From Kiritimatiellia bacterium (GTDB lineage: Bacteria; Verrucomicrobiota; Kiritimatiellia; RFP12; UBA1067): DNA of 64,000 nt. Made by a program: the position numbers and the translations under genes. Positions 7,931-38,700 of this stretch are shown piece by piece. The notes under the pieces were generated by a model that was given only the letters and a program-made list of their open reading frames with translations, had not been told where the DNA came from and made no database searches. Positions within the stretch are counted from its first letter, which is position 1; the number at the start of each line of letters is the position of its first letter. The stretch covers positions 2,091 to 66,090 of the forward strand of contig JAZLMR010000035.1 of assembly GCA_045598785.1 (NCBI GenBank), in the 5' to 3' direction.

Positions 7931-7931
7931 G

Positions 7932-13120: not shown

Positions 13121-13129
13121 AGCAAGAAT

Positions 13130-13158
13130 ATTTTATGTGATTTCGACCGATTAGTCAA
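13130..13158 (-). promoter_or_regulatory. Near-consensus sigma70-type promoter (TTGACT-17 bp-TAAAAT) for mreBCD-mrdA-rodA; predicted leaderless or near-leaderless mreB mRNA
   Basis: Minus-strand gtaTTGACTaatcggtcgaaatcacaTAAAATattcttgctATG. -35 at comp(13153..13158), -10 at comp(13130..13135), spacer exactly 17. The -10 ends 9 nt before the ATG and there is no SD. Confidence 0.5.
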
Positions 13159-13161
13159 TAC

Positions 13162-14526: not shown

Positions 14527-14553
14527 AAGCTTCCTCTTGCCAAGATTCGGTGA

Positions 14554-14562
14554 ATTATACCA
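14554..14562 (-). promoter_or_regulatory. Extended -10 promoter (TGGTATAAT) for aspartate kinase
   Basis: Minus-strand gcggccgctttttGGTATAATtcaccgaatcttggcaaGAGGAAGcttATG. The -10 sits about 28 nt before the ATG, and the SD GAGGAAG is 3 nt upstream of the ATG. Confidence 0.45.
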
Positions 14563-14574
14563 AAAAGCGGCCGC

Positions 14575-15516
14575 TTAATGGCAACAATTCGCCCAGTCAG
14601 GCTCGGGGGCGCGGATTTCCGTCTCCACGCCCGAAACGGGATGCCGGAAACGCGCCGCCAGCGCATGCAGGCAATGGCCGACCTGATGCTCGACTGCAAA
14701 CGCCCCATAGAGCCGGTCGTTGACGATATGCATTCCCGCCAGCGCCAGTTGCGCCCGGATCTGATGGGTCACGCCGGTGAAGATCTTGACCTCCAGCAAG
14801 GTGCGCACTTCGTTTTCTTCCGTCAAATGCGCAAGCGGACGATAGGCAGTCACGGCCGGCAGCGGCCGGAGCCGGGCGCTTTGCGCTTGCGTCAGCCGAT
14901 TGTGCCGGGCGTCGATCATCCGGCAAAACGGCAAGGTGGGGTCGTGCACCAGCTCGTTGCGGAGCGTGCCGCCTACCGCCACCGAGCCTTCGACCAGCGC
15001 CAAATAGGTCTTCTCCACGGTCTGGGCCGCAAACTGCGCGCGCAAGGCCGAAAAGGCCGCCGCCGTCCGCGCCACCAGCACCAGCCCCGAAGTGTCGGCG
15101 TCGATGCGATGCAGCGCCCCCGCCATCAGCGGCGAATCGCCCAGCGCCCGGCACTCCGGATAGCGCGAAACCACCGCATTCATCAAAGTTCCCGTTTCGC
15201 GGCACGAAAGCGGCTGCACCGGCATGCCCGCCGGCTTATCAAAGGCCAGCAGCGCCGCATCTTCGAAAAGCGGCTGGGGACAGTCCCCCGCCGGCAGCAC
15301 CAGATTGTCCTGCGCCTCCAGTAGTTCAATCACCTGCAGCCGCTCGCCGCCGCGCAACTTAAGCCCCTTGGCCGCCCGCCGCCCGTTGACCAGCACCTTG
15401 CCGCCTTGCACCGCCTCGCGAACAAACGCCCGCGTAGAAGTCGGGAATTCCAAAAGCAAGGCGGCGTCCAACCGAACGCCGCCCTCCGTTACCGTCACCT
15501 CGACCTCGCGAATCAA
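14575..15516 (-). CDS. RluA-family 23S rRNA pseudouridine synthase (S4 domain plus catalytic domain, RluD-like)
   Basis: Has an S4-like N-terminal domain (VRLDAALLLEFPTSTRAFVREAVQGGKVLVNGRRA) and the RluA catalytic core (HRIDADTSGLVLVART). The track ORF extends to 15618, but that upstream part overlaps the small lipoprotein ORF. I place the start at the TTG at comp(15514..15516), overlapping the lipoprotein stop (TTGA). The GTG at 15498 is an alternative. Confidence 0.7.
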   Translation of the reverse strand: MIREVEVTVTEGGVRLDAALLLEFPTSTRAFVREAVQGGKVLVNGRRAAKGLKLRGGERLQVIELLEAQDNLVLPAGDCPQPLFEDAALLAFDKPAGMPVQPLSCRETGTLMNAVVSRYPECRALGDSPLMAGALHRIDADTSGLVLVARTAAAFSALRAQFAAQTVEKTYLALVEGSVAVGGTLRNELVHDPTLPFCRMIDARHNRLTQAQSARLRPLPAVTAYRPLAHLTEENEVRTLLEVKIFTGVTHQIRAQLALAGMHIVNDRLYGAFAVEHQVGHCLHALAARFRHPVSGVETEIRAPEPDWANCCH

Positions 15517-15677
15517 TCGTAGCGCTCCATGGCGGCCGGGGCAATTGGGGCAATGCCCTCCCAGCTCTTGTTCGACGCCCAAGGCAAGTCGGAATCTTCC
15601 GCCGTGTCGGCAATGCACCCCGCCAGCAGCGAAAGTGCAAAGGCCGCCAGAAAAACCTTAGTCAGCGAAAATGACAT
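15513..15677 (-). CDS. Candidate 54-aa lipoprotein (signal peptide plus lipobox LLAGC)
   Basis: MSFSLTKVFLAAFALSLLAGCIADTAEDSDLPWASNKSWEGIAPIAPAAMERYD is the C-terminal 54 aa of track ORF 15513..15977. ATG at comp(15675..15677). It overlaps the end of the upstream coiled-coil gene by 20 nt and the RluA start by 4 nt. Short, so low confidence. Confidence 0.3.
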   Translation of the reverse strand: MSFSLTKVFLAAFALSLLAGCIADTAEDSDLPWASNKSWEGIAPIAPAAMERYD

Positions 15678-16800
15678 CGTTAACCTGAACCTTGTCCTGT
15701 TCCCAGGCGCCCAGAATGTCGCAGACCACGAAGTTCTTGCCCTTGACCTCCTGACGCAGACGGATGCGCCCGACAAATTCGCCCGCCGGGCCCTTGAAGC
15801 CATCGCGGCGAATGCCGAACTCCATCGCCGGCATCGGCTTGTTGCCCTCCGGCCCCTTGAGCTCCTTGATGGCATCGGGGCAAAGCTCGACAATCGCGAA
15901 CATGTCTTCGTTATCCGCCACGATGACCTTGCCCTTGACCCCGGAAGAAAGCGACGAAACCGCCACCATGTCGGCACTGGAGCCGCTGCCCGGGCCCTGA
16001 GTCTGAATCGACTCCTGCAACAGCTTCTTCAACTGATCAATCAGCTTCTGGGCCTTGGCCGTCTCTTCCCGCGCCGCCTCAGTTTCGTCCTTGGCCGTGG
16101 CCACTTCGTCCTTCAACGAGGCAATCTCACCGTTGAGCTCGTCGGTACGGCCCTTGATCTTGACAATCTGATTCGCAAGATCGGCCTTCTCACCCTCCAG
16201 CTTGGTAAGCTTCGCCTGCTGCTCTTCAATCGTCACCTTGTCCTGACGGGCCTCGGGCTTGAGCTTGTTGATCTCCGCCACCACCGATTCCAGCTTTGCG
16301 CGCAGATCCGAAAGCGCGGCGCGCGTGGAATTAAGGCGCGACTGCTGCGTCTTCGCCGATTCGAACAGCTTCGAGAGCAGCTCGTCTTCCGTGCCCTTGC
16401 CGCGCATCAGCGGCTGATTGCCGTCCATCACCGGATTGCCGTCGAAGTCCAGCACGTAAACCTGACGGAGCTGGCTGCGGATGGACTGATCGTCCCAATT
16501 GTAGGTCTCAAGATTGGCCTGCTCCAGCGACGCCGGATACTCCTCCAGCACATTCTCCATGTCCGGCGAATCCACCAGCCGCGCTTCAACCGGCGAAGCG
16601 TCCTTCTTGATTTCAAAAGTCGCATCCTTCGACGGCTCGGCCTTTTCCAGCGTTCGCGCGATCTTGACGAAATAATCTTCCTGAAGACGGTTGCGGTCAG
16701 TCAACAGCGAACGCTTATCATTCAACTGCAGCTCAAAATAGAGCGAAGCACCTGCAAGCAGCAGAAACACGTAAACGAGAACGTGCAGAACTTTATTCAT
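15658..16800 (-). CDS. Membrane-anchored coiled-coil protein of unknown function
   Basis: 380 aa with an N-terminal TM helix (VLHVLVYVFLLLAGASLYF), about 200 aa of heptad-rich coiled coil, a GPGSGSS linker and a conserved-looking C-terminal globular domain. I recognise no family. Confidence 0.6.
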   Translation of the reverse strand: MNKVLHVLVYVFLLLAGASLYFELQLNDKRSLLTDRNRLQEDYFVKIARTLEKAEPSKDATFEIKKDASPVEARLVDSPDMENVLEEYPASLEQANLETYNWDDQSIRSQLRQVYVLDFDGNPVMDGNQPLMRGKGTEDELLSKLFESAKTQQSRLNSTRAALSDLRAKLESVVAEINKLKPEARQDKVTIEEQQAKLTKLEGEKADLANQIVKIKGRTDELNGEIASLKDEVATAKDETEAAREETAKAQKLIDQLKKLLQESIQTQGPGSGSSADMVAVSSLSSGVKGKVIVADNEDMFAIVELCPDAIKELKGPEGNKPMPAMEFGIRRDGFKGPAGEFVGRIRLRQEVKGKNFVVCDILGAWEQDKVQVNDVIFAD

Positions 16801-16832
16801 GATTTTTGGTACCTTTTGACAAACTGCTGGTT

Positions 16833-19756: not shown

Positions 19757-21298
19757 TTACAGACTCTTCAGGTCCAGCGCCAGCAGGAACTCGGGATTAC
19801 TCTGCGTCTTGCGGAGCGAATTCAGGACCGACTTCATCGCCGACTCGGAACCGGCCGCCGAAAGGATCCGCCGCAGGCCCCAGGTCTTTTCCAGCTCCAT
19901 CGGGTCCAGCAGCAGGTCTTCCTTGCGCGTGCCCGACTTGTCGATGTCAATCGCCGGGAAGATGCGCTTGTCGGCGAGCGCACGGTCCAGCACGATCTCC
20001 ATGTTGCCCGTGCCCTTGAACTCCTCGAAAATCACTTCGTCCATGCGGCTGCCGGTGTCGCCGAGGCCGGTGGCGATGTTCGTCAGCGAGCCGCCGCCCT
20101 CGATGTTGCGCGCCGCGCCGAAGAAGCGCTTCGGCCGGTGCATCGCGAGCGCGTCCACACCGCCGGTCAAGATCTTGCCCGAATGCGGCTGCACCGTATT
20201 GTAGGCGCGGGCCATGCGGGTGATCGAATCCATGAGAATGATGACGTCCTTGCCGTTCTCCACCTGCCGCTTCGACATCTCCAGCACCATCTCGGTCACA
20301 TTGACATGATGCTGCGGCTCCTCGTCGAAAGTCGACGACAGCACCATCGCCTTGGTGTTGCGCTGCATGTCGGTCACTTCCTCGGGCCGCTCGTCAATCA
20401 GCAGGATGATCAGCATGGCCTCGGGGTGGTTCTTGGAAATGGCGTTGGCCATTTTCTGCAGCAGCACCGTCTTGCCGACTCGCGGCGGGGCGATGATGAG
20501 CCCGCGCTGGCCGAAGCCGATGGGCGTGAACAGGTCGATGACGCGAGTCGAGAACTCCTTGGAGTCGGTTTCCAGCAGAATGCGCCGCGTCGGAAAGGTC
20601 GCGGTAAGGTTCTCGAAATGCACCACCCGCGCCGCCACCGACGGCTCCTTGTCGTTCACCAGATTGACGTTCCCCAGGCAGAAGAACCGATCGCGGTCGC
20701 GCGGGTCGCGAATCGGGCCTTCGATGATGTCGCCCGTGCGCAGCGCATGGCGGCGAATCTGCTGCTGGGTGACGAACACGTCTTCGGGAAACGCCAGGAA
20801 GTTGTTCTTGGCGCTGCGCAGAAAGCCATGGCCCTCGCGGACGATTTCCAGGCAGCCCGACGCGATGACCGCCCCGCCGTGGGCCAGATAGGCGCGAATG
20901 GCCGCAAAGATGAGCTCGTGCTTGCGGTAGGAGCCCAGCTCCTCGGGATCCGCCCCGGGCATCATCCGGTCGACAATCACCTGCGCCGGCCAGGTCTGGA
21001 TGTCGGCCAGCCGATACTCCGGCAAGTCCGGATTGCGGTGCGGATTCTGATTCTCAGTCTCGGCCGCGCGCGGCTCGGTGGGAAGCGGCGCATTCAAAAG
21101 CGGATTCACCGACTCGGCACCGTTCGCCCCGCGAATCGGCGAATTGTTGGGCTTCGGCTGATGGCCGCGATTGAACCCGCCCTTGCGATTGTGGAACCTG
21201 CCCTTGGGCGCTCCCGCCGGCGGCGGATTCTGATTCTGCGGATTCCCCTTCTTCGCCGCATTTACGGCACCGGCAAACACATCGAGTTCTTCAGCCAT
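19757..21298 (-). CDS. rho: Transcription termination factor Rho with a ~160-aa low-complexity N-terminal extension
   Basis: Conserved Rho core with RecA-like ATPase ([25 protein letters not shown]) and the CSD/OB domain. N-terminus is N/Q/P/G/R-rich ([36 protein letters not shown]...). Confidence 0.9.
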
Positions 21299-21801
21299 GA
21301 TATGAATTTTTCTGCTTCGCGTTCCAGATCCTCGGCGGACCCGTCATTGTTGATTACGTATTGGGATTTTTGCGCCTTGACCGCAACCGGCAGCTGCGCC
21401 GCCAACCGGGCCTCGGCCTCCGACCGCGAGTAGCCGCGATTGGAAATCATCCGGGCGATCTGCGTTTCCCGCTCGCTCCGAATGCACGCTATTATATCAA
21501 ATTCTTCTTCCCAATGCACCTCGAAGAGGAGCGGAATTACCGCGATGCGCAACTGCCGGCTCGGCTCATCCAGCCACGCCGTCAGCCGCGCCTTCACCAG
21601 CGGGTGCAGCCGCGCTTCGAGCGCCCGCCGTTTTTCAGAATCGCCAAACACCTCCGCCGCGAGGTGCCGCCGCTCGGCCGGATCGGGAATGAGCTCGTGA
21701 ACGACGGCATCGGCATCGAGCGTTTCAATGCCGCGCACGTTCAGATAATGCGAAAGGAGGGACTTGCCGCAGGCAATCCCTCCCGTAAGTGCAATTTTCA
21801 T
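21262..21801 (-). CDS. coaE: Dephospho-CoA kinase
   Basis: P-loop [14 protein letters not shown] at the proposed start, ATG at comp(21799..21801). The track ORF extends 22 codons further upstream into a basic, probably untranslated region that would overlap the secretin. 37-nt overlap with the rho start. Confidence 0.8.
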
Positions 21802-21814
21802 TGCCCCTTCGCGC

Positions 21815-24800
21815 TTACTCGGCCTTCGGCGCTTCCTTGACTTCGGCTTCCGAGGCCGCGCCGTCATTGACGCGCAGTTCCCGGCCCGAAGGCGTAATCA
21901 GCCGGCCGGTGACGAAGATGAGCAAATTGCGCTTGATCGTCTGCTCGGCGTGGCTGCGGAAGAGCCGCCCGATGAACGGCAGGTCGCCGAGGAACGGCAC
22001 CTTGTCATCCATCGCCTTGCGCTGCTCGGTAATGAGCCCGCCCATCACCACCGTCGAACCGGGGGTAATCGAAACCTTGGAGTCGATCGACCGCGCGGCG
22101 AAGAACGGCTGTTCCATCGGCGCATCGTAATATTCGATCGTCGACGGATTCATCGACTTAAGCGCACTGTCCATATACGCCGTAGCAACAGCCTCAGATT
22201 GCGCTCCGATCAGCTTGTTTACCGCGTCGGCCAGTGTTTCTGCGGCTCCAGGAATCCAGTTGAAAAGCGTTCCCGGATCCGGCACGACCCCGGTGCTGGG
22301 ATTGCCGGTAAACGGAATCTTCATACCGTAGTTCTTCCAGCTGTCGAGTTGCACCACCGACGGCTTCATTTCGAGATCAATGGTGCCACCATTGGCCTCC
22401 GAATAGGTCGGAGTCACATCAAGAACGACGCCGACTTCGCGCATAGTGAAGTTCTGGGGCTCCACCACCGCCAGAATCGCCGACGACGAGCCGCCCGAAC
22501 TGCTGCCGCCACCGCCGCTCGACGAGCTCGACTGCAGCTGCACATCATAGTCCTGCGGATAGATGTATTCGGTAACCACCTTGATGACCGCATTCTCGCC
22601 CGACTTGGTGACCACCTTCGGCGCCGACAAGAGGTCGGTATCGCTCCGCTGCGAAAGCATGTGGAGAATCATCGAGAGGTCAGCCGAACCGAGGAACGCA
22701 TTGACGCGCATAAACTGGTCATTGGTCGACTTCGACTCCCCGGAGATAAAGTTGCCCGTCGTCGACAAGTAACGGCTGCCGCTGCCATATTGGGAATTAC
22801 CGCCAAAGGCATTCACCCCAACACTGCCGTCAGCGCCGTCCCTTCTCACCCAAGTCGAACCATCGCCGATAACCGTCTTAGTGGTAACAGTTCTGGTTGT
22901 TTTCTCTTCGTATTTGGCCAACGGTGGGTTTGCTTGCCCATAAGCCTCGCTTTGAATCGTCTCTGTATTTACATCCGTATTCACCGTCTCGCTACGAGTG
23001 GACTTGGACGGCGAAAACTCACCGCTCTTAAGCCCCAGGGCGCGATTGAGCTTGCCGCCCAAATCCAGCGAATAGTCGCTGTTGAGGATCCACTCGAAGC
23101 CGAGCGAATTGAGATCTTCCTGCGAGACTTCGACGAAACGAGTCTCAATTTCAATCAGCATCGTCTGCCCGCCCAGTTCCTCAATCACCTTTTCAAACTC
23201 CGCCAAGTTTTCACGGGTGTTGCGGACATAGAGCTTGCCCAGCGACTTGATGTGCTTGATGGACGAGCCCTCCGGCCACTGGACGCCGAGTTCGGTAAAG
23301 AAGCCCTTCCAGTCGCGATCCTCGCTTTCCGTCTCCTCTTCATTATTGTTCTTGGAGCGGTTGCTCGACCCGAAGCCGCCCATTTCCTTCATTTCGCTCG
23401 ACGCGGAATTGAGGCGCTCCACAAACGCTTCCGGCACATTGTACTTGCGCGAAAGGAGCTCGGCCGTCGACATGTCAACCGGCATCACCATCACCACCGG
23501 CCCGCGCACGATGAACTTGTAGCCCACCGAATCGCAGACGAGCTTCAACGCCTCGTAGAAGGTGATGTCGCTCGCGGTAATCGTCTGAATCGGCTCCAGC
23601 CCGTTGGACGGCGCCGCCGCGCCCTCGTCGCCCGACGAGAAGTCATCGGAGCTTTCTTCCGCCTGCTGAGTCTTGATCGCACCCTGCGGCGTACGCAACA
23701 CGAAGTTGAAGCCGCGCTTTTCAATCGGGATGTCGGGGCGGTCATAATCCTTCGACGCCGTGCGGAAGAACTCCACCGCCTCGATGATCGTCGCCGGCGG
23801 CTTGAACGAAATCGTCGGCAGGCGCATCTCCTTCATCCGCCGCACGATGTCCTGCTCCTGCGTGCGCTCGGGGTCGTCACCCGTCTGCGTCTTGACCGTC
23901 TCGGCCGACGACTCGTTAAGCCGCGCCGCGTTAACCGCGTAAACCGGCCGCCACGCCTCGTCGACATCGGCAATCATGCCGTCACGCGCCGCCTCGCGCT
24001 CCTGCTTCAGGATCGTCTGGCGCTTGCGCTCGATCGCCCGCCGGATCCGCAGCGCATCCTGATTGTAAGGATCGTTCACGAGCACGATCTCCGCCTCCTC
24101 GAGCGCCTTCGCCATGTCGCGCACCGCCAGATACTGCCGGCTACGGCGCAGATGCTTGCGGATCTGCTCGCGCTCATTCTTGAAATCCTGCTCGTTGATG
24201 CGATGGGCGTATTCGGCGCCATCGGCCTTGACCTCGGTCTCATTGCCTTCGGCCACCCACTTCTCCAGCACGCGCCGCGCCTTCGGGTGGCGCATACCAA
24301 TCGCCTTCTCCATCAACTGAACCGCCCGCTCGCGGCGGCCCAGCTCTTCTTCCTGCAACGCCGCGCGGAACAGCCCCTCGGCAATACCCTGGTCGCATTC
24401 CTTCTTGAACTGCTTGGAACCCGCACGGTCGTTAAGGAGCTTGAGCGCCAGCCCGTAGTGGCGCACGGCATCGGAATATTCGGCGTTCGCCATGCACTCG
24501 CGCGCCTCGGCAATTTCCCGCATGGCCTGCGCGTCCAACGACCCCCGACGCAACTTCTCGGTGGTGCGAAGGTTCTCAAGCAGCTCGGCATCGGTTGCCG
24601 CCACGGTCGCCGCCGGTTTGGGCGCCTCGGCCTTCGGCTCCTCGACCTTGGCTTCCTCGGCCTCCACCTTCGGCTCCTCGGCCTCCACCTCCACCTTGGC
24701 TTCGGTCTTCGCCGCCGGAGTTGTCGCTTCCGCTTCCAGATCCTTCAGCAGGTTGTCAAGATCGTCCTGCGCCAACCCACTCTGACCGACGGCGACCAAC

Positions 24801-24853
24801 GCCACCACCGCACTCAGGGCGATCCCATTTCTGATGTTCATCATATCGACCAC
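21815..24853 (-). CDS. Secretin (GspD/PilQ superfamily outer-membrane channel) with N-terminal E/A/K-rich repeats and a TPR-like region
   Basis: 1012 aa with a signal peptide. The C-terminal secretin domain carries the conserved VPFLGDLPFIGRLFR motif. Start is GTG at comp(24851..24853), preceded by AAGGAG 4 nt upstream. Position in the cluster corresponds to Akkermansia Amuc_1098 (from memory). Confidence 0.8.
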   Translation of the reverse strand: MVDMMNIRNGIALSAVVALVAVGQSGLAQDDLDNLLKDLEAEATTPAAKTEAKVEVEAEEPKVEAEEAKVEEPKAEAPKPAATVAATDAELLENLRTTEKLRRGSLDAQAMREIAEARECMANAEYSDAVRHYGLALKLLNDRAGSKQFKKECDQGIAEGLFRAALQEEELGRRERAVQLMEKAIGMRHPKARRVLEKWVAEGNETEVKADGAEYAHRINEQDFKNEREQIRKHLRRSRQYLAVRDMAKALEEAEIVLVNDPYNQDALRIRRAIERKRQTILKQEREAARDGMIADVDEAWRPVYAVNAARLNESSAETVKTQTGDDPERTQEQDIVRRMKEMRLPTISFKPPATIIEAVEFFRTASKDYDRPDIPIEKRGFNFVLRTPQGAIKTQQAEESSDDFSSGDEGAAAPSNGLEPIQTITASDITFYEALKLVCDSVGYKFIVRGPVVMVMPVDMSTAELLSRKYNVPEAFVERLNSASSEMKEMGGFGSSNRSKNNNEEETESEDRDWKGFFTELGVQWPEGSSIKHIKSLGKLYVRNTRENLAEFEKVIEELGGQTMLIEIETRFVEVSQEDLNSLGFEWILNSDYSLDLGGKLNRALGLKSGEFSPSKSTRSETVNTDVNTETIQSEAYGQANPPLAKYEEKTTRTVTTKTVIGDGSTWVRRDGADGSVGVNAFGGNSQYGSGSRYLSTTGNFISGESKSTNDQFMRVNAFLGSADLSMILHMLSQRSDTDLLSAPKVVTKSGENAVIKVVTEYIYPQDYDVQLQSSSSSGGGGSSSGGSSSAILAVVEPQNFTMREVGVVLDVTPTYSEANGGTIDLEMKPSVVQLDSWKNYGMKIPFTGNPSTGVVPDPGTLFNWIPGAAETLADAVNKLIGAQSEAVATAYMDSALKSMNPSTIEYYDAPMEQPFFAARSIDSKVSITPGSTVVMGGLITEQRKAMDDKVPFLGDLPFIGRLFRSHAEQTIKRNLLIFVTGRLITPSGRELRVNDGAASEAEVKEAPKAE

Positions 24854-24893
24854 CTATCTCCTTAATTTAGGCAACAGTATACTATAAGTTTGC

Positions 24894-26033
24894 TTATCGT
24901 TCAAGTGCTTCAAGCGTCCGCTTCTTGCCGGAAAGCACACTTTCCAGGGTCACTTTGGCCCCTTTGCCAACCGGCGTAATGTCCGTAATTCGGTATTTGG
25001 AGCCGTTAAGATCAATCTCCGAACCCGGGACCACGTCGAGGTTGCGGACCTCCCCGCGATTATAGGCCAGCGTCGCCTTGACATCCACCGCCGCCAGCTT
25101 CATGCCCTTGATCGGCTGCAGCACCAGCGTCATGACCTTGCCGTCCCGCTCGCGCTCCAGCACCACCTCGGAAACATCCACCGTGACGAACATGCCCTTC
25201 ATGCCCTTCTTCTCGCGCTTTTCCGACTTGGCGGTATAGCTCTTAAGCGTCCAGCCATAGTCCACCGGATTCTTGGCGTCGCTCGCATCCACGATCTTCT
25301 CGCCCACCTTGACCGTGACCTTGCGGCCCAGCTTGCCGTAGTCGTTGCGGCGCGAAGGATCAAGGAACTCACAGCGCCAGCCGCCGGGAATCTGATTGGC
25401 CGTCACGAAGGCGAACGGCATCTTGGTCTCCTGAAGCGGCAACACGATGGAGAGCGAATCGAGATAATCGGGATGGTCGTTGGGATTCAGCGGATCGGTC
25501 TTGGCCAGGAACTCCTCCAGATTGGTGAAACCGTCCTTGTCGGCATCCTGCTCGGCATCGGCGGCATCGGCAATGTTGAAGCCGAACTTCTTCTCCCAGT
25601 CGTCCGGCATGCCGTCCTGGTCGGCGTCGACCACGACCACCTTCTCCTCCTCCTGCTGCTCCCCGCAGTACGGACACTTCGGGAACGCCTTGGTGTCACC
25701 GGGAATCACCTTCTTGCACTTGCACAGGACGCGCCGTTCGCTCGTCAGGAAGTTCCCCTGCTTTTCCGAGACCTCCGCCAGCGTCTTCGGGCTGCGCACC
25801 AAACGCAACGCCTCCTGATACTCGGACATGTCGACCGCCTTAACACCGGTCTCGCCCCGATCCAGCCGGGCGATGCGCGCGACTTCCTCGGCCGCCGCCT
25901 CCTCGGGATCGGCGCCCATCGACATCACAAACATGGCCGCCCCGCCCGCCAGCGCCAGCAACCCCAAGCCGGCGACAATCCAGTCGTAATGGGCCGCCAA
26001 AAAATTCTTATTGCCAAAACGCGAGACCATCAC
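24894..26033 (-). CDS. Pilus-cluster membrane protein with a zinc-ribbon motif and thrombospondin-type-3-like Ca-binding motifs (Amuc_1099 position)
   Basis: 379 aa with an N-terminal TM helix, a CKCKK...CPYCGE four-Cys motif and two D-x-D-x-D-G-x-x-D motifs (DADQDGMPDDWE, DADKDGFTNLEEF). 4-nt overlaps with both neighbours. Confidence 0.6.
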   Translation of the reverse strand: MMVSRFGNKNFLAAHYDWIVAGLGLLALAGGAAMFVMSMGADPEEAAAEEVARIARLDRGETGVKAVDMSEYQEALRLVRSPKTLAEVSEKQGNFLTSERRVLCKCKKVIPGDTKAFPKCPYCGEQQEEEKVVVVDADQDGMPDDWEKKFGFNIADAADAEQDADKDGFTNLEEFLAKTDPLNPNDHPDYLDSLSIVLPLQETKMPFAFVTANQIPGGWRCEFLDPSRRNDYGKLGRKVTVKVGEKIVDASDAKNPVDYGWTLKSYTAKSEKREKKGMKGMFVTVDVSEVVLERERDGKVMTLVLQPIKGMKLAAVDVKATLAYNRGEVRNLDVVPGSEIDLNGSKYRITDITPVGKGAKVTLESVLSGKKRTLEALER

Positions 26034-27037
26034 TTAACCTCCTCGCTCTTGTCTTCGTCTTCCAACGACCGAAAGTCGTAAACCGAAACCGTCATCGTCA
26101 CCGCAAACGGCTCGTCCAGCAGCGGATCGGTGACAATGCCGTTCTTGAGATTGACATCTTCCTTCGGCTCCTCAACGGCTGCCGCCCGGCGACCGCGCCG
26201 CCGGCGACCGCTCGTCTGCTCGTTCTTCTTGGCATCCTCGCCACCCAACGCTGCCGCCAGCTGATCGTGCTGCCGCAGGAAGGAAAAGTCGTCGACGACC
26301 GTGAACCGCTCACCAGTCGCCAGCGCATTCATCGCCTTGATAAAGCCGACCGGTCGCGTCGTGAACGCAAAGGTATAAGTAAAGACCGAAGGCTCCTTAA
26401 CCGGCTCGGGGTCCTTCTTCCCCGCCTTCTTGCCCGCCTTGCGCGTGTTCTTCCGGTCCGCCGCCGACTCCGGGACCGGCCGCGCCGCAAACTGCACGTC
26501 CGTAAGCTCGGCAATGCCCGAAGCCGACAGGAGCTCGACCACCGTGGCGACATCGTCCCAGCGCCGCTGCAATTCCGCCAGCTCGCCCTCGGCCGGCATC
26601 TTGCCCTCGCTGATGTATTCGCCGAAAGGACCGAACTTGAAATCCGGCTTCACCAGCACGTTCTGCACCGCTCCCGGCAGCGTCGCCAGGCGCTTGGCAT
26701 CCGCGACCAAAAAGGTCTTGAACGCCGCCGGCGTCGTCGCCGGAAACACCTTGTCGCCGCGGGACGCAAGCTTCAGCGTCTCGTCCTTCCATTCCACGAG
26801 CGCCTGCTGGTTCGATGCAATGGCGGTCACGCTCTTCTTGCTCGGGAAAATCGGCTTGCGCGAAAGCGACTCCGCCTTTTCCACCACCGTCTCCAGCCCG
26901 TCGGTGCCCTCTTCCTCGTCCCCGGCGATGGCCGCGGTCTTGTCGGCGAACGCCATCCAGGTGAGAAACGCCAGCACCAGAATCACCAGCCCCAAACCGC
27001 CGCCCACGGCGGCCAGAATCATGCGGTTCTTATTCAT
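26030..27037 (-). CDS. Amuc_1100-like pilus-associated protein (membrane-anchored)
   Basis: 335 aa with an N-terminal TM helix. Segments TTPAAFKTFL and FIKAMNALATGERFTVVDDFSF resemble Akkermansia muciniphila Amuc_1100 (TTPTAFQNEL; VLKAMNAITGMQDYLFTVNSIRI). These are recalled from memory and need checking by alignment. ATGA overlap with the PilM/N stop. Confidence 0.6.
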   Translation of the reverse strand: MNKNRMILAAVGGGLGLVILVLAFLTWMAFADKTAAIAGDEEEGTDGLETVVEKAESLSRKPIFPSKKSVTAIASNQQALVEWKDETLKLASRGDKVFPATTPAAFKTFLVADAKRLATLPGAVQNVLVKPDFKFGPFGEYISEGKMPAEGELAELQRRWDDVATVVELLSASGIAELTDVQFAARPVPESAADRKNTRKAGKKAGKKDPEPVKEPSVFTYTFAFTTRPVGFIKAMNALATGERFTVVDDFSFLRQHDQLAAALGGEDAKKNEQTSGRRRRGRRAAAVEEPKEDVNLKNGIVTDPLLDEPFAVTMTVSVYDFRSLEDEDKSEEVK

Positions 27038-28635
27038 TTGAGTTTCATCTCCACGGTAAATTGTTCCAACTGACCGTCAGCGCCCACCGAACTCATGTCG
27101 GCGATTTTCACCGACTGCCCGTCCAGCACCGTCTGCCGCTTGAGCTTGTCGACCACGGTTTCGCTGACCGTCTTGCCGGTCGAGACCTTGACCCGATCCT
27201 TCCAGTAGCGAATCGTCACCTTGGTCGCATCGCACTTGTCGATCCACATGCCGGGCAACAGCGAGCTGCGGACGGCATTGAGGCGCTGCACCGCCAGCGC
27301 GCGGCTGTTCATAAGCTGCCGCACCTTCTCGGCCGCCGCCGTCGCCTCGGCCTCCGCCTCCTGCGCGGCCTTGACCTCGCGATCGAACTTGGAGAGCGAA
27401 TCGAGCTTGACCTGCACTGCATCGCGCTCGGCGACAATGAGTTCGGTGTCGTAGCCGATGCTCAGCATCGCCAGCACCAGCGCCCCGGCGATCAGCACTC
27501 CGCCGGCCGCCACAAACGGAATCTTGGCCTTTTCCGCGCGGGCCTCCACCAACCGCGGCGGCAACAAGTTGACATTGAAGAAAGAAGTGCCGGCCGCATG
27601 CGCCGCCAGGCCGACGGTCGCCGCAATAAGCGCGCCATCGGCCTCCAGCGCCGAAGCCTCGACCTTGGACCCGACCTTGATGGCTTCAAACGGATTGAAA
27701 TACTGCACCGGAATCTGCAGCGCTTCCGAGAAGAAGACGTCCAGTTGCGGCAACAGCGCCGAACCGCCGGTCAAATACAGGACGTCCGGCGCCCGCCCGC
27801 CTTGCTGCGAACGGTAGAAATTGATCGAACGCGAGACCTCGGCATTGAGCCGCGTCATCACCGCGCGGCAAACCTTGGCAATCCGGTCGGCGGTCTCGTC
27901 GTCGTCTTCGGTAACGCCGCCCAGCGAAACATAACCCTTCTCGCGCTTGAGCTGCTCGGCTTCCGCCGGCGAACAGCCGAGGGCGTTGGCGATTTCCTTG
28001 GTGATCGTATTGCCGGCGACGGGAATCGAACGGTTGTAGAGCCGGTCCTGCTCGCTGATGATCAGCGAGGTGGTCTTGGCCCCGATGTCCAGGAGCACCA
28101 CGCAGGCGCCGTCGTTCGGCAGATTCAGCTTCGCCGCGTTGACGAGCGCGATCGGCGCCGCATCCACGACCTCGGGGGTAAAGCCCGCCGCCTGCACCGC
28201 CGAGGTGAGCGCCTCGATCTGGTCGATCTTGGCCGCCACGATCATCACCGACTTGTCGCCGGCGGCCGTGTCGCCGACAATCTGACGGTCGCAGACCATC
28301 TCGTCGATGGGGAACGGGATGTTCTGCTCGATCTCATAGCGGATCAGCTGCTCGAAGCGCTCTTCGCCGCCGGTCGCCGGAATCGCCGCAAACCGCGGAA
28401 AGACCATCTGCCCGGAAACGGACATCGCCACCTTGCCCGGCTTGATCCCCTTCTCCCGCACGATCTCCAGGAGCGCGGGCGAAAGGATCGTCTCCGCATT
28501 GCCGGCGTCAATCGGCGCCGCCAGCTGGGCCGTTCCGTAGTTGAGCAGCGTCAACGCGCCCTTCGCACCCACATCATACTCGGCGAGTTCCACCGTCGCC
28601 GCGCCGATGTTCAACGTTAGGAATTTCTTAGCCAT
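27034..28635 (-). CDS. Type IV pilus assembly PilM-PilN fusion protein (actin-like ATPase fold, TM helix, coiled-coil/periplasmic domain)
   Basis: 533 aa. The N-terminal ~350 aa is a PilM/FtsA-like actin-fold ATPase. A TM segment follows (IPFVAAGGVLIAGALVLAMLSIGY), then a PilN-like coiled coil and beta domain. Strong SD GAGGAG 5 nt upstream of the ATG. Corresponds to the FtsA-annotated Amuc_1101 position. Confidence 0.75.
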   Translation of the reverse strand: MAKKFLTLNIGAATVELAEYDVGAKGALTLLNYGTAQLAAPIDAGNAETILSPALLEIVREKGIKPGKVAMSVSGQMVFPRFAAIPATGGEERFEQLIRYEIEQNIPFPIDEMVCDRQIVGDTAAGDKSVMIVAAKIDQIEALTSAVQAAGFTPEVVDAAPIALVNAAKLNLPNDGACVVLLDIGAKTTSLIISEQDRLYNRSIPVAGNTITKEIANALGCSPAEAEQLKREKGYVSLGGVTEDDDETADRIAKVCRAVMTRLNAEVSRSINFYRSQQGGRAPDVLYLTGGSALLPQLDVFFSEALQIPVQYFNPFEAIKVGSKVEASALEADGALIAATVGLAAHAAGTSFFNVNLLPPRLVEARAEKAKIPFVAAGGVLIAGALVLAMLSIGYDTELIVAERDAVQVKLDSLSKFDREVKAAQEAEAEATAAAEKVRQLMNSRALAVQRLNAVRSSLLPGMWIDKCDATKVTIRYWKDRVKVSTGKTVSETVVDKLKRQTVLDGQSVKIADMSSVGADGQLEQFTVEMKLK

Positions 28636-28693
28636 ATTCTCCTCGCATTAAGCACTAGGCGCCCGGCACTGCGCACCCGGCACCCGGCACTTC

Positions 28694-29407
28694 TTACTGC
28701 ATCGTCGTTTCGTAATCGTTCGGATTCACCAGCGCCCAAATCGTCTTCGAGCGGTCCATCAGGCCCTGACGGCGCTCGATCAAGGGCTTGCCGTTCGCGC
28801 CCATCTTGTTCATGACTCCGTCCTGATCTTCCCAGAACTTCGAATCATTGGCAATGCCCTTGATTTCGCTGACCGTGCCGCCGCCCAGTTCGTCGCCGTT
28901 CTGGTTGGTAATGGTAAAGCCAATCGCCCGCGCCTCGCCGTAAAGCTCAAGATAGGACGGCGGCAGGCACACGCAAGCCGCATGCGACCCCTGCGGAATG
29001 TTGTAATAGGAGACCGAAGTGTTGAAATAGCTGTACTGGGAATCCAGCCCGAGCTTGTTGCCCTTGTTCTCCTTCGCCGACTTCGCATCCAGGACGACAT
29101 GCCAGTTGAAGGTGAGCTGGTCGAGGAACTTGGCGTAAGTCGTGTACTTCGTCTCGATCACGATCCACTTGCGCGGCTTGGTGTAGCACTGGCCGATCAT
29201 CGAAGCCCCCGGCACCGCCGGCGCCGCCAGCGTCGACTGCTGGCCCGTCTTGGGCATCTGATCGATCAGGATCTTCGCCTCCTTGCCCGTAGTCTGAACC
29301 TCGTCCGCGCCCGCCATCGCCTTGACATTCTTGTTCTTGCCCTTCGGGGCCGCCGCGAAAGTCGTCGCCGCCAGCACCACCGTCATCGCCATCATCAGCT
29401 GCTTCAT
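28694..29407 (-). CDS. Secreted pilus-cluster protein (Amuc_1102 position; pilin-like/unknown)
   Basis: 237 aa with a signal peptide (MKQLMMAMTVVLAATTFAA) and no other recognisable motifs. Size and position match Akkermansia Amuc_1102. AAAGGAAC SD-like motif 6 nt upstream of the ATG. Confidence 0.55.
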   Translation of the reverse strand: MKQLMMAMTVVLAATTFAAAPKGKNKNVKAMAGADEVQTTGKEAKILIDQMPKTGQQSTLAAPAVPGASMIGQCYTKPRKWIVIETKYTTYAKFLDQLTFNWHVVLDAKSAKENKGNKLGLDSQYSYFNTSVSYYNIPQGSHAACVCLPPSYLELYGEARAIGFTITNQNGDELGGGTVSEIKGIANDSKFWEDQDGVMNKMGANGKPLIERRQGLMDRSKTIWALVNPNDYETTMQ

Positions 29408-32778: not shown

Positions 32779-35700
32779 TTACTTGTAAAGCGAGACGCGG
32801 AAGAAGCCGGCATCGCCCTCGACCCCGCGAACGGGAACCTTGGAGGCGCCGGCACCGACGGTGATGGTCTGGGTTTCGCCGACCTTGATCCAATTGACAT
32901 CCGCAAGGCTGGCCTTCCAGTAGACGTCGCACTTGACCGTCATCGTCTTGCTGACGATCGCCTGGGCGAGCACGCTGTCGTTGCGAGCCGGCTCCGTCTG
33001 AGCTTCAACCTCAATCACGACATCGCCGTTCTCGTCAAACGCGAGCGAACTGATGATGACGCCGTCTTCGACCAGTTCGTTGCTGACCGCCGCCGAAATC
33101 GCCGCCGCGAAGGTGTCGTAAGCCGAGACGTCGCTGCCCAGCGCCAACGCCATCGCGCCGGCATTGCTCAGGGTGAACATCGCCTGCGCCGCGAGCCCGC
33201 CGTTGATGTCCTGGGCGCCGATTCCAAGCTCCTGCATCAAGTTCTCGGTCAACACGTCGCTGATGGCGAACTCCCCGGCCGCCGAGAGGTTGAGCTCCTC
33301 GACGCCCTTGGTCGTGAGGTTGCCGTACATGGCAAATTCCCAGGCATCCGGCAGCCCGTCGCCATCGGTATCGGCATCTTCGAGGAAGATCTCGCAGAGA
33401 TCCCCTTCGCCAACCACGTTTGCGATCTTGACCGCCACCGGGTTGAGATAGTCAGCCGTGGTGCCGTTGCGCTGACAGAAGTAGCCCATCGTCTCCCATT
33501 CGTCGCAAACGCCATTGGCATTGGAATCGATGAACGCCTGGAGATAATAGGTGCCCGGAGGCAGCCCGATGAGCGTGCAGTTGGCCGTAAGCTCCCGATT
33601 GGTAACCGCCAGGCCCGTAATCGCGTCGGCAGGCTGAGCCACATAGCCCGCCGCCACCGGCGTGCCGGTAAAGTCAGGCGAGGTATAGGCGCGGACGCGA
33701 ACCTGCTTGCTCGCGAAGCTCTCCGCCGGACCGAAGTAGCGCACCGCCACCGGCACCTTGCCGCTCGACCAGCCGTTAGTCTGCACCGCCATGCGGAACG
33801 ACGGCGCGTCGGAACTGAAGACATCGGTGCTGAACTTCGCGTTGTACATCGCGACCTTCCAGCTGTAGTTGGTGTTGTTGTCAAACACCACGCCTTCCTG
33901 CGTCTTATCGCCCACGAAGAGCGGCGCCGCCCAGACATATTCGTTCTTGCCATTGCGCGCCGGCGCCGGCAGGATGCCCGAATCGTAGACCTTGGTCTTA
34001 GCCGCATCCGTCTTCAGCACCTGAATGCGGAAAGCCGGATAGCCTTCTTCGTCGGGGCAGTCGAGCTTCCAGGTGAAGGTCGGATTGGCCGTGCGCACCA
34101 CGCCGCCGACTTCGCCCGCCGACACCGGCTCCGGCAGCACGCGATCCTTGCCAAACTTACGGGTTACGAGCGTATCCAACGCCGTCACCGTATAATTCGT
34201 CAACACGGTCGACCACCAGTCAACTCGGGCATCGCCAGTCACCACCAAATAGGTCACATTGGTGATTCCCAGCTGCTTACTCTTCACGACCGAATTGTTG
34301 ACCACCTCAGAATTGAGATATTTCCAATCCAAGTCAAGTTCACCGTTAGCGAAAATATCAGCTTCCGTCAACACCGACCGAACCGAAGTAGTGACATACT
34401 TGTCAAGCACCACTCGATTCTGAATCCCGCAATCCACCGCCGAATTGCCATCGACCAGCCACCGGACAACGCGAATATGCTGCGCCTTGTCCGAGCTTTC
34501 CAACGCCGTCGACACAATGTTCATCTTCGCCATCCAGCTCAGCGAAGAGGGCAGAATGTAAGACTGCGTCAGCCAGTCATAGTATTCAGGGCGGGAAATG
34601 CCGCGGTCGGACTCCGCATCAACAAGACTAATGCGTGGCGTTACCGGGCTCACGTCAGTCAGCTCGATTTCCGCCGAAGTGCCGCGCCAGGAGACCTCGA
34701 CATTTCGAACGACGCCATAAGGCTCCCCGGCCGAATATTCACCGTCACCGTCCAAATCGGCAAAGGCAATAATCATGTTCTTGCCTTCCCGGACATGGCC
34801 GACCGTCGCCTCGCCGAGATAAAGCTGACGCGGCAAACCGGTCAGCGGATTGGCCTTGTAGGCGATGCGGAAATACTTGTCCTCGAACGAACTCACCTCG
34901 TTCCGATTGGACACGTTGGAGCCATACCAGCCCTTGAAGACGCCCAAGTCGAGGTCAAACTCGCCGGTGGCCAGATTGATCGTGCCGAACTGAGTGCCGT
35001 CCTTGGTCACCCAAACGCCAAAGTCACTGTCGGCCTCAGCGCGAACCTCGGTGCCGACCAGTTCCGAATAAGCCGAGCTGGAAGGCAGCTTCTCGACGCC
35101 GGAGCCGTCGGCATTGGAACCCAAGACCCCGTATTTGCGAACTGCATCCTCATATTCGGCAATCGTGCCGCGATAAACCACGTATTCGCCATTGTAATGA
35201 TACTTCCAGCTGCATACCGTCGCCGACGGGCCGTCGCAGGCCTGGAGCGACATCGAGCTCGCCATCACGCTGCCCGGCGTCAGCGTGCCCACCATGTGAC
35301 GGTCAGACCACTTGCCAAGCACGCGATAGAGCTGATTGCTGCCCACGCCGACTTCCACCTTGTAGCTGGCGTCCGGCTCGGACTCCAGTTCGCCGGTCAC
35401 GAACTTGACGACCATCGGCGCCGACTCGACCGTCGACTGGCGGCGGCCGTTATAGCGGAGGGTGAGCGCAATCGTCGGCACCGGATAATCGGAAACTAGC
35501 TCGCCCGAAGCCGCCATGTGGCGCTGACGGTCGGCGATGATCGGCATGCACAGCTTCGAATAACGCACCTTGCTGCGGTTGCACCAGCCGTCGAGCTCGC
35601 GATTCGCGAAGGCATCGTAAACGAGCCGCGAGGCGAAAGTGCCCGCATACTGATCTTCCCATTCGTCATCGACCAGATCGTGATCGGTGAAGATCTCACC

Positions 35701-38700
35701 CGCATAGAGCTTGCCGATCCGGAAGAAGTAGTCGGGCGTATAGCGATTGACCGAGAACGGATCGGTCGGGCTGAACGTGAACCCGTCGAAGCGGAAGACT
35801 TCCGAGAGCATGTATTCGACATAGTTGGAAAGCCCGTCGTGGTCGCTGTCATCGAGCGCCGACGCGTTCGCGAGTCCATAGATGTTCTCCCACCAGTCGG
35901 GCAGCCCGTTGGCATTCAAGTCGTAAAGCTGCCGATACTTGGGATCGTCGAATACCCCCTCGACGTTCTTGTCGGCATAGGCGCCGCGGGCCAGATCGCG
36001 CAGATACGCTTCGCGCGCCGTCATCTTGACCCCGTTATAGAGGACATAAGTCGAAGGGGCAATCGGGGTCTGCGGATCGTCGGGGAGGCGGTATTCCCCA
36101 TCCGCATAAGCCTCCCACCAGTCCGGCAGCCCGTCGCTGTCGCTGTCATAGCCGGTGATCTCCCAGTTGGCGCTGGCCCCCTGCTTGTCCCACAGCCCGA
36201 CCGTGTTGTCGCAGAACTTCACGAACGCGCCGCCGAGCGGGAGCAGATCGTCGCCACACTGCGCCGCCGTGCGCCCGGCGAAGTTGAAGAGATTGGCCAA
36301 ACCGCCCATCACGTCGCCCGGGCAATAGGTCGGGCTGAACACGAGCTGATGCCGCGCCGCCGTCGTCCGATAGGCATTGTCGGCGGTCGCGAAGTTGCGC
36401 GTATACTGCGTCCAGAGCGAAACCGGTTCCGCGTCACGGGCAAAGCCATAGTTGCCATTGACGCCGCCCGCAAAATCCTGGCTCCAGAAAGCCGAGTCGC
36501 CCGTCGTGCCGTCAATGCGCGGCAAGTGGGCCATCGTATCCGGCACCCAGGTCACCCAACGCGGATCGGCATAACGCGAACCGTACGCATCGAGGACGCG
36601 CTTCCACCAGCCGCAAACCCAGTCGTCCGGACGCGACCAGCGGCCGGCGTCGGAATCGAGGAACCCGACCGGCGCCTGCGCAAGCGACTCCACGTTGTCC
36701 GCGCCGAAGACGGAATCGAACGAATAGTGGTGACGAAGCTCCGGCAGCACGTTCATGCCGCGGGCGAGATCCGAGTAGCGGCTGTAGCCGAACGCCAGCC
36801 ACTTGTCATAGAAGGCCGCGCGGTTGCTGACGGCGTCGGCCGCCGTGAAGCGCTGGCGCATCGCGCCCGAGATCTCCGCCTGGCTGCGCGCGCCGTCCCA
36901 GATGCGGACTTCGTCGACATAGCCCTTGAAGAAGCGGGTATAATAGTCCCAGCCCTTCGCCTCGGTGAGGTCGAGCGCCCGGCCCACGGTCTGCGAAGCC
37001 ATCGGCCCCGGCAGCTCGGCGTAGGTCTTGAGCGACGCACCGACAATCAGCGCGCAGTAGGAATAGGTCTTGCCGAACGAGAAGTCGTCATATTCGTTCG
37101 CCAGTCCTTCCGCATGCCGGGCGACGATGGCGTTGCGGCCATTCTCCGGCCACAGCTTGTTGACCTTGCCGTCAAGGTTTTCGCCGACCGAAATCCCGTT
37201 CACGTAGAAGCGGAGCGATTCGCCGTCATAAGTCGCCGCGAGGTGCACCCAGCGGTTGGGCTCGACGGTCACGCCGCTGTCGACGAAGACCTGGCTCTCC
37301 ACCTTCGTGCCCGTGGTGTCGAACTTGGTGAACCACTTCTGCGACTTGATCGCGATCTGGAAGTTCTTGCGGATGAACTCCTCGTCGGCCGCGCCCGATT
37401 CGGAACCCCAGACGGCGCGTTCGATCACCACCGAATCGGCGTCCGACTCCGGATAGGCCCAGCACTCGACCGTATAATGGCGGAAGGTGTCTTCGGTATC
37501 GAACTTGGTCGCCCCCAGCGGCGAAAGCTCGACGCACCGCGGCATCGTCTGCAGCGCCGACTTGTCGCCCGGGAAGTACATCGCCTGCCGGCGCATCGGC
37601 GCATCGGCATTCAGCGGGCTGGAATAATCGGTGATCTTGCCCGACAGCTCGCTGCTGTCGTTGACGCCGTCATGGTCGGTGTCGTAGCCTTCGTTCTCTT
37701 CGAAGGAACAGACCCAGTTGAAGTTATTCTGGGCGGCAACCGCCCACTTGTCGGGATTGTAGACCCCGAACGCCGGCACTTCGCCGTCCGCCGTCTGGGC
37801 CAGGGTGTAGCCGCCGAAATCGCAGAACTTGTACTCATCGCCTTCCGGAGACGTGAAGGTCGGAGCGCCGAGCAACACCGGGCTGAAGCGCGCCGGCATC
37901 CGGAAGAACAGGCGCACCAGCGAATTCGAGTAGCTCGAATCGGTCATCCACAGCGGCGTCGGGTCGGTGTGGTTCGCATAATCGAGCGCGTCCCGGGTCT
38001 GGATCGCCTCCTCCTCGTTGCGGATGTCGTCGCCATCGGGATCGGCGCCGAGCATGCCGTTAAGCCACGGATAGACGGTGAAGTCCATGCCCGTATTGGT
38101 CGCGCGCGCATCGGCCTTCGCCCGGAGCGGCGAACCGAAGCGCGTCCAGGTGTTGACCAGGTCCAGCGACTCGCTCTGGTCGCGGCGCCAGGCCTTGACC
38201 GGCGACTCGTACATCGTGCCGGCCTCGGCGTTCATGCCGTAGCACCACGCATGGTAGACGAGGTCGCACGGCTGGCCGTTCTCGTTGCGGACGCCTGCGG
38301 CGCCCAAAAGCGGATTCATGCCATGGAAGAGCTCGTAGTAATCGTCCATACCGTCATGGTCGGAGTCGGCCTCGATCGGCGAGGTGCCCATGTAGCACAT
38401 CGGCGTATAAAGCGCCTTGTTCTTGACGAGCCCCGCGCTGACGAACGCCAGGAACCAGTCATTTTCGGGCTTCGCCGAAAGCTCATGGTCGACGCCGTCG
38501 TAGAAGAAGTAGTAGGTGCCGGCATCGGTGAACGCCGGGTCAAACCCGTTCTTCACCCGCGTGAAATACTGCGAGCCGACCGGCGACTGGTCCATGACCA
38601 GATAGGGGTTGTAGATCGGGCTCTGGGTGTTGACCAGGGTCTCGTACCAGAACCTGCCCTCGTCGACCGTATCGTCGAGGAGCTTGAGCTTGGCCGACTC

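Follow-up and report, generated by a model that had tools for sequence, protein, structure and literature searches.

A probable Kiritimatiellia counterpart of the Akkermansia muciniphila MUL2-secretin locus

The DNA analysed here, a 64,000-nt stretch from a Kiritimatiellia bacterium (GenBank assembly GCA_045598785.1, contig JAZLMR010000035.1; the whole stretch is termed the window), carries on its minus strand, at positions 29407-21815, a block of five same-strand open reading frames (ORFs) whose products comprise 237, 533, 335, 379 and 1012 amino acids (aa) (Table 1). For each of these five products the best NCBIfam match is the corresponding family of the Akkermansia muciniphila Amuc_1098-1102 cluster, in the Akkermansia order, and the same order was found in an A. 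muciniphila locus (L029) recovered for comparison. A sequence-only reading of the window, made earlier and without database searches, had proposed just this correspondence of gene order, which is thus borne out. We consider it probable that the block and the A. muciniphila Amuc_1102-1098 (MUL2 plus secretin) locus are orthologous and that the block encodes an envelope-spanning machine of the type IV filament class.

The sequence-only reading had described the five genes as co-directional and overlapping. The former description is accurate for all five, whereas the latter applies to two of the four junctions: the genes for the 533-aa and 335-aa products overlap by ATGA at 27034-27037, and those for the 335-aa and 379-aa products by GTGA at 26030-26033, or by TGATG if the 379-aa gene begins at an ATG one codon later, where the NCBI gene call places it to give a product of 378 aa. 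At the remaining two, the genes are separated by 58 and 40 bp. The exact start codon of the secretin gene is uncertain, because the GTG-started protein is absent from the collection. At the other end of this gene, the longest ORF for the dephospho-CoA kinase CoaE overlaps the secretin 3' end by 53 bp; since tblastn matches to CoaE homologues begin only at residues 20-25, the true start is probably the ATG at 21801, 14 bp past the secretin stop. The GC content of the block, ~0.58-0.63, equals that of the rest of the window and agrees with the figure of about 62% given earlier. A scan for promoters and terminators returned counts at chance level.

Table 1. Coordinates of the gene block and other features of the window, with the corresponding genes of A. 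muciniphila locus L029
Locus	Feature	Coordinates	Strand	Length (aa)	Assignment or remark
Window	Sec-exported beta-sandwich protein	28694..29407	-	237	Remote Amuc_1102 (MUL2A) homologue; putative fibre or periplasmic subunit
Window	PilM-PilN fusion	27034..28635	-	533	Amuc_1101/MUL2B-like
Window	Bitopic membrane protein	26030..27037	-	335	Remote Amuc_1100 homologue, PilO-like fold
Window	Bitopic membrane protein	24894..26033	-	379	Amuc_1099 family
Window	Outer-membrane secretin	21815..24853	-	1012	Amuc_1098-like
Window	Dephospho-CoA kinase (CoaE)	21262..21867	-		Pfam CoaE 6.4e-33; conserved downstream neighbour, outside the machine
Window	Transcription termination factor Rho	19757..21298	-		Conserved downstream neighbour
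Window	Giant protein	32779-45456	-	4225	Ten TSP3-like motifs
Window	Giant ORF	45880-54504	-	2874	DUF2341 match only
Window	ORF	54501-57311	-	936	Listeria-Bacteroides repeat; overlaps the 2874-aa ORF
Window	Rod-shape cluster	7932-13120	-		
Window	MreB	12083-13120	-		Rod-shape cluster
Window	MreC	11292-12086	-		Rod-shape cluster
Window	ORF at the MreD position	10844-11356	-	170	No Pfam match
Window	PBP2	9082-10857	-		Rod-shape cluster
Window	RodA	7932-9092	-		Rod-shape cluster
L029	Amuc_1102	7268-7996	+	242	
L029	Amuc_1101	8043-9881	+	612	
L029	Amuc_1100	9911-10864	+	317	
L029	Amuc_1099	10900-11913	+	337	
L029	Amuc_1098	11985-14708	+	907	
L029	CoaE	14803-15408	+		
L029	Rho	15272-16825	+		

At the level of the individual families, the 1012-aa product matches Amuc_1098_fam at 7e-124 (415 bits, cutoff 750) across model positions 18-804 of 805, and the 533-aa product matches Amuc_1101_fam at 2.1e-119 (400 bits, cutoff 650). 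The 379-aa product passes the curated cutoff of Amuc_1099_fam (6.3e-20; 72 bits, cutoff 50), the 335-aa product reaches Amuc_1100_fam at 7.7e-9 (35 bits, cutoff 180), and the 237-aa product has as its sole NCBIfam match Amuc_1102_rel at 1.3e-4 (22 bits, cutoff 55). Pfam recognized a Secretin domain (1.9e-31), a PilM_2 domain (PF11104; 4.8e-44) and a weak TSP3_bac match (0.0068) in the block, and no others. Precomputed annotations of homologues carry the accessions PF28028.1 for the 335-aa family and PF28178.1 for the 237-aa family, and a newer Pfam release apparently defines both.

That the 1012-aa product is a secretin, as had been proposed, is confirmed by the Pfam Secretin match together with coverage of nearly the full length of the Amuc_1098_fam model. 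It aligns with A. muciniphila Amuc_1098 over 964 collinear residues at 26% identity (E=1e-80), and shares with that protein an unusual architecture with a long helical N-terminal region and large insertions; the two differ in length (1012 vs 907 aa). In full, a signal peptide and an acidic/Lys-rich linker are accompanied by a long helical N-terminal region resembling tetratricopeptide repeats and by large insertions in the secretin region, among them a Ser/Gly run. Generic secretin models recognize only the C-terminal ~80 aa, with GspD at 127 (126.8) bits against a cutoff of 351, PilQ at 115 bits, also below its cutoff, and MshL at 102 bits. Chains of PilQ and GspD in the Protein Data Bank (PDB) match the protein equally, over aa 912-994 only.

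The 533-aa product combines an actin-like, cytoplasmic PilM domain (aa 9-345, nt 28611-27601), which scores 170.6 bits with TIGR01175 pilM against a cutoff of 133, with a single hydrophobic segment or transmembrane helix (aa 370-397, nt 27528-27445), beyond which a PilN-like, periplasmic region runs to aa 533. The PilN signature NVNLLPPR lies directly before the helix, and a profile of the C-terminal 188 aa matches Myxococcus PilN (3jc8_Na) from PilN residue 3 onward (E=1.4e-6); a Pfam scan of this C-terminus in 18 family members at E<=1 returned no PilN match and no family in more than two of the 18. The PilM_2 domain, the NLLP motif, the helix and the C-terminal profile match together uphold the earlier designation of this protein as a PilM-PilN fusion. 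With A. muciniphila Amuc_1101, in which a PilM-type protein is likewise joined to membrane and periplasmic portions, the protein shares 36% identity over 375 aa (E=6e-71), its length being 533 as against 612 aa. The GspL protein of type II secretion systems has the same layout, namely an actin-like cytoplasmic domain followed by a transmembrane helix and a periplasmic domain.

For the 335-aa product, which has an N-terminal hydrophobic segment at aa 4-37, the resemblance to Amuc_1100 emerges at the levels of the family and of the predicted fold. All 29 members of its family match Amuc_1100_fam and no other model (best E 5.3e-15). A structural model generated with AlphaFold2 (AF2; mean predicted local distance difference test (pLDDT) score 71) was compared with the PDB by Foldseek, and ranks 1-10 are all Amuc_1100 structures (6LAD, 6LAF, 6KNY), with E of 1-5e-6, probability 1.00 and target-normalised template-modelling scores of 0.58-0.67 at 11-15% identity; on this model, the Amuc_1100 fold appears to be common to A. 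muciniphila and the 335-aa product. PilO follows in the same list (Myxococcus 3jc8_Oa, E=0.02; Pseudomonas 2rjz, E=0.05; probability 0.92-0.93). The PilO resemblance is one of fold only, the 335-aa product having no PilO match at the sequence level in Pfam or NCBIfam. The Amuc_1100 reference sequence used for these comparisons was checked against 6LAD and 6KNY and is identical to them (100%) over residues 31-317. In the BLASTP alignment with Amuc_1100 (E=0.1), the motifs that the sequence-only reading had named, TTPxAF and (F/V)(I/L)KAMNA(L/I)(A)TG, are collinear (TTPAAF/TTPTAF and FIKAMNALATG/VLKAMNAITG).

The 237-aa product begins with an N-terminus, MKQLMMAMTVVLAATTFAAAP, that reads as a Sec signal peptide, a feature it shares with Amuc_1102; the prepilin motif G-F-T-L-I-E is not present in this N-terminus. 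Its link to Amuc_1102 is transitive, established through one round of exhaustive profile search: when 1.84 billion representatives were searched with a hidden Markov model (HMM) of the 237-aa family, no more than 168 clusters (50% identity) were obtained at E<=0.001, and the full-length members of the widened family were assembled in a 73-sequence alignment (A3). The A3 profile matches the Amuc_1102 structure 7DSZ_A over nearly its whole domain at E=5.5e-18, hhalign aligns it with the Amuc_1102 ORF of L029 at 99.1% probability (E=5e-19, 195 columns), and 59 of the 73 members match Amuc_1102_rel and no other model. The description of this product as a small, secreted, Amuc_1102-related protein is thereby substantiated, and alignment at the family or profile level was thus obtained for both of the pairs, 335 aa with Amuc_1100 and 237 aa with Amuc_1102, on which the sequence-only reading had staked its proposal. 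Among the five products, the 237-aa protein is also the most conserved (68% mean pairwise identity, 28 species); in a first-generation alignment (A2) the mean column identity is 84%, and long stretches are invariant, among them NIPQGSHAACVCLPPSY and ERRQGL.DR. Three cysteines, C74, C145 and C147, are invariant in the family, as against none in Amuc_1102. In the monomer model no structure is assigned to the last ~20 residues, which are conserved; it might be that they take part in strand exchange between subunits.

The sequence-only reading had described the 379-aa product as a TSP3/zinc-ribbon membrane protein. Its membership in the Amuc_1099 family is secured by the score above the curated cutoff; the zinc ribbon does not belong to the Akkermansia pattern. 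An N-terminal transmembrane helix (aa 17-41) precedes a predicted periplasmic part. In this part, a zinc-ribbon-like CxC...CxxC motif occupies aa 104-123 (nt 25724-25665) and two TSP3-type Ca-binding motifs occupy aa 136-184 (nt 25628-25482), ahead of a C-terminal domain rich in beta structure; the four Cys and the Asp ladder are invariant in 21 sequences of the family. The family alignment (A4) matches A. muciniphila Amuc_1099 by hhalign over the TSP3 motif and the C-terminal domain (probability 96.7%, E=3.5e-10). Amuc_1099 contains no cysteine and one TSP3 motif, and thus lacks both the CxC..CxxC motif and the second TSP3 motif of the Kiritimatiellia protein; because of the missing cysteines, the zinc-ribbon-like motif is, as judged from these sequences, an addition on the Kiritimatiellia side. 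An extracytoplasmic location would be unusual for a zinc ribbon. The 379-aa gene occupies the position at which PilP sits in pilMNOPQ operons, and its product possesses a transmembrane helix instead of a lipobox.

The block is conserved among related Kiritimatiellia. With the 237-aa family as query, 27 loci were identified among GTDB species representatives, most of them in metagenome-assembled genomes (MAGs) from rumen, sheep, goat, chicken and human gut. In every locus, within the reach of the contig, the order is AckA-Pta-KpsF-[237-PilMN-335-379-secretin]-CoaE-Rho-UvrA, with intact ORFs of similar length, one locus (L014) lacking a KpsF match. The 237-aa gene lies 3-237 bp upstream of the PilM-PilN gene and in the same orientation in 27 of 27 species, and the two adjoin one another in Akkermansia as well. 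Mean pairwise identities across species are 68% for the 237-aa product, 63% each for PilMN and the secretin, 51% for the 379-aa product and 42% for the 335-aa product, the least conserved and fastest-evolving of the five; among the neighbours they amount to 73% for KpsF, 63% for CoaE and 83-85% for Pta, AckA and Rho. Window Rho, which served as the taxonomic marker, clusters at 90% identity with 'MAG: transcription termination factor Rho [Kiritimatiellia bacterium]', in keeping with the earlier judgement that the genomic context is not that of Akkermansia, and close homologues of the 237-aa and 379-aa products are deposited as 'hypothetical protein [Kiritimatiellae bacterium]'. Several of the records (L022, L027, L001-L003, L018 and L021) carry the titles 'Faecalibacterium sp. 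CAG:74', 'Anaerovoracaceae bacterium' or 'Lentisphaerae/Lentisphaeraceae'; these labels look wrong or outdated, because gene content and synteny match the Kiritimatiellia loci.

Synteny extends beyond the five genes. A. muciniphila loci were obtained by a metagenome scan with the verified Amuc_1100 sequence, and the seven-gene order 1102-1101-1100-1099-1098-CoaE-Rho, all in one orientation, is common to the window and to L029; CoaE matches its L029 counterpart at 9e-14 and Rho at 46% identity (E=6e-105). The upstream neighbours differ, and no AckA or Pta match lies upstream of the block in L029. The two loci differ further in GC content (62% in the window, which comes from a gut Kiritimatiellia MAG, ~56% (56.4%) in L029) and in the depth of their divergence, the identities between the window and A. 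muciniphila being 36% for PilMN, 26% for the secretin, ~21-23% for the 1102-type protein and 11-15% for the 1100-type protein (structural alignment). In A. muciniphila, the 'pili-like' Amuc_1098-1102 cluster was described in 2017 and its proteins are abundant in the envelope fraction (PMC5332112). MUL2 denotes amuc_1099-1102, whose synteny, flanked by the secretin, dephospho-CoA kinase and rho genes, has been reported in Akkermansiaceae and other Verrucomicrobiales, with weaker conservation in Chthoniobacterales and none in Methylacidiphilales (PMC13174399, 2026). Within the literature searched, no publication was found that links the Amuc/MUL2 cluster to Kiritimatiell*. The NCBI taxonomy treats Kiritimatiellota and Verrucomicrobiota as two distinct phyla within the PVC group. 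Because the block is kept together with coaE and rho in 27 Kiritimatiellia species and in A. muciniphila, the evidence points to a core-genome feature inherited vertically from an ancestor common to both lineages. Horizontal transfer was considered and rejected, the GC content of the block being that of the genome and its core-genome context being conserved.

A working model for the machine can be sketched from these assignments. The PilM-N/PilO-like pair would form an inner-membrane platform, which the 379-aa protein would bridge to the secretin, and the 237-aa protein, following Sec export, would assemble in the secretin or pass through it as a subunit, either periplasmic or of a fibre; any motor ATPase and platform protein that the machine requires would be encoded outside the window. 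As to function, the A. muciniphila mul2 genes are described as pilus/periplasmic-complex genes needed for mucin acquisition (PMC13174399, PMC12418764). Because of this requirement, and because Amuc_1098-1102 proteins are abundant in the envelope, we tentatively propose, as a suggestion that falls somewhat short of an even chance, that the machine might serve the capture or uptake of complex glycans in gut Kiritimatiellia.

Several observations weigh against the orthology and the model built upon it. Four of the five proteins score far under the curated NCBIfam equivalog cutoffs, Amuc_1099_fam alone being passed, and for this reason the block proteins are, by sequence, best regarded as remote homologues outside the narrow equivalog families. 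The E of 0.1 is all that BLASTP gives for the 335-aa product against Amuc_1100; neither phmmer nor a 29-sequence first-generation profile (A1) reached an Amuc_1100 PDB entry, and hhalign of A1 with the single Amuc_1100 sequence was not significant (E=0.15). Similarly, phmmer and the A2 profile of the 237-aa product reached no Amuc_1102 PDB entry. The AF2 model of the latter is of low confidence (mean pLDDT 61); in it, residues 80-215 form a beta-sandwich core. Foldseek with this low-confidence model retrieved generic Ig-like beta-sandwiches only, and 7DSZ, the structure on which PMC13174399 superposed predicted MUL2A models to recognize them, lay outside the top 50. The high conservation of the 237-aa protein is moreover unusual for a surface-exposed pilin, and for this reason the protein may not be an external fibre. 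No PilP or GspC match for the 379-aa product was found in Pfam, NCBIfam or a PDB profile search, the latter returning only weak calcium-binding and zinc-ribbon noise, so that a PilP-like role lacks sequence support from that search. Finally, the putative glycan-uptake role is taken over from Akkermansia by analogy, through secondary sources.

Among the alternatives, the one that comes closest is that of an ordinary type IVa pilus or competence pilMNOPQ operon, with pilins, PilB/PilT and PilC encoded elsewhere, in which descent of the Akkermansia cluster itself from pilMNOPQ would alone account for the resemblance to the Amuc proteins, the 237-aa protein serving as an accessory factor of the periplasm and not as the fibre. 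The PilMNOPQ systems of Myxococcus and Pseudomonas (3JC8, 2RJZ) do share with the window a PilM domain, here scoring above the TIGR01175 cutoff, a PilN with the NLLP motif and a PDB PilN match, a PilO-like fold and a secretin whose domain matches PilQ structures. The order M-N-O-x-Q in the window corresponds, moreover, to the M-N-O-(P)-Q order established for pilMNOPQ operons, and the strong conservation of the 237-aa protein is more easily reconciled with an accessory protein that is not exposed than with a major pilin. Yet the Amuc-specific models perform far better, that for the secretin scoring 415 bits over its full length as against 115-127 bits over the last ~80 aa for the generic models. 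PilM and PilN are fused in the window, the secretin scores under the PilQ cutoff and differs from PilQ in its N-terminal region, and in place of a PilP homologue or PilP lipoprotein there is a fourth protein with transmembrane, zinc-ribbon and TSP3 elements. The first gene of the operon specifies a beta-sandwich protein exported by Sec instead of a type IV pilin, and this gene lies directly upstream of PilM-PilN in all 27 species and in Akkermansia. As the sequence-only reading had stated, no pilin, PilB, PilT or PilC gene was found in the 64 kb, neither among the window ORFs of >=150 aa that were scanned (the 4225-aa ORF being left out of the Pfam scan) nor, for prepilins, in a six-frame search for the prepilin motif. 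We regard an ordinary pilMNOPQ operon as rather unlikely, and this alternative overlaps with orthology to the MUL2-secretin locus instead of excluding it.

A type II secretion-like exporter, composed of a GspL-like fusion, a GspM-like protein, a GspC-like bridge and a GspD secretin and having as cargo the giant TSP3-repeat surface proteins encoded just upstream, is a markedly less probable explanation, and one that we consider improbable. The PilM-PilN fusion does have the GspL layout, GspM being the type II counterpart of its PilO-like partner, and GspD tops the generic secretin models. In addition, the 4225-aa neighbour carries ten DxDxDGxxDxxE motifs like those of the 379-aa product and is conserved upstream in at least 21 of the 27 loci. 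Against this, PilQ and GspD structures match the secretin domain equally well, and three housekeeping genes (ackA, pta and a kpsF-like gene) separate the giant gene from the block. Conservation of the neighbour says little, because the whole region is collinear among closely related species, and A. muciniphila L029 has no giant neighbour. Nor were GspC, GspE, GspF or pseudopilin genes found in the window, and the gene order is unlike that of gsp operons. A chance resemblance of gene order among unrelated membrane proteins, for which it could be said that the pairwise similarities of the 335-aa product to Amuc_1100 and of the 237-aa product to Amuc_1102 are not significant alone, has already been refuted and has a vanishingly small likelihood: all five best-family matches fall in the same order, family-wide HMM matches back both weak links, for which the fold and profile comparisons are significant, and the seven-gene synteny with the A. 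muciniphila locus is directly observed. Orthology with the Amuc_1098-1102/MUL2 system, with which the window shares the five families, their order, their orientation and the coaE-rho flank, accordingly remains the preferred interpretation.

Other features of the window lie outside the block. The gene for the 4225-aa protein with its TSP3-like motifs is co-directional with the block, the order giant-AckA-Pta-KpsF-block recurring in the loci counted above. The 2874-aa and 936-aa ORFs beyond it are likely large surface proteins. On the other side of the block lies a complete rod-shape cluster, in which MreB and MreC are followed, in the direction of transcription, by a 170-aa ORF at the position of MreD and then by PBP2 and RodA.

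The Kiritimatiellia block is a new and highly divergent member of a known system, whose phylogenetic depth it extends and for which it suggests a general role in the envelope, and is not a new type of system; its advance over the 2026 report of MUL2 synteny in Verrucomicrobiales (PMC13174399) is incremental. A more far-reaching interpretation, which we advance as speculative and on balance doubtful, is that the Amuc_1098-1102 system might represent an envelope machine that is ancestral in the Verrucomicrobiota-Kiritimatiellota lineage and part of its core genome, instead of an adaptation to mucin or one peculiar to Akkermansia. Such a machine would be a pilMNOPQ derivative equipped with a Sec-exported, non-prepilin beta-sandwich subunit, maybe free of pilins and perhaps of a PilB motor, devoted for example to secretin-based capture or import of glycans, and Amuc_1100, well known as 'host-interacting', would be its fast-evolving PilO-like inner-membrane component.

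Few 'probiotic' proteins have been studied as much as Amuc_1100 and its neighbours, and MUL2 is reported to underlie mucin foraging by A. muciniphila. Given that Kiritimatiellota form a separate NCBI phylum and that identities fall to 11-36%, the machine would appear to be ancient, an old and vertically inherited envelope system whose basic role is unlikely to be specific to a host or to mucin. The comparison separates a conserved core, consisting of the PilM-N fusion, the PilO-like fold, the TSP3 motif, the secretin architecture and the very conserved 1102-type subunit, from lineage-specific traits such as the zinc-ribbon-like insert and the cysteines. This contrast is useful for the design of experiments and for the construction of better family models, which can be improved because four of the five proteins fall under the NCBI naming cutoffs and their homologues are deposited as 'hypothetical protein'.

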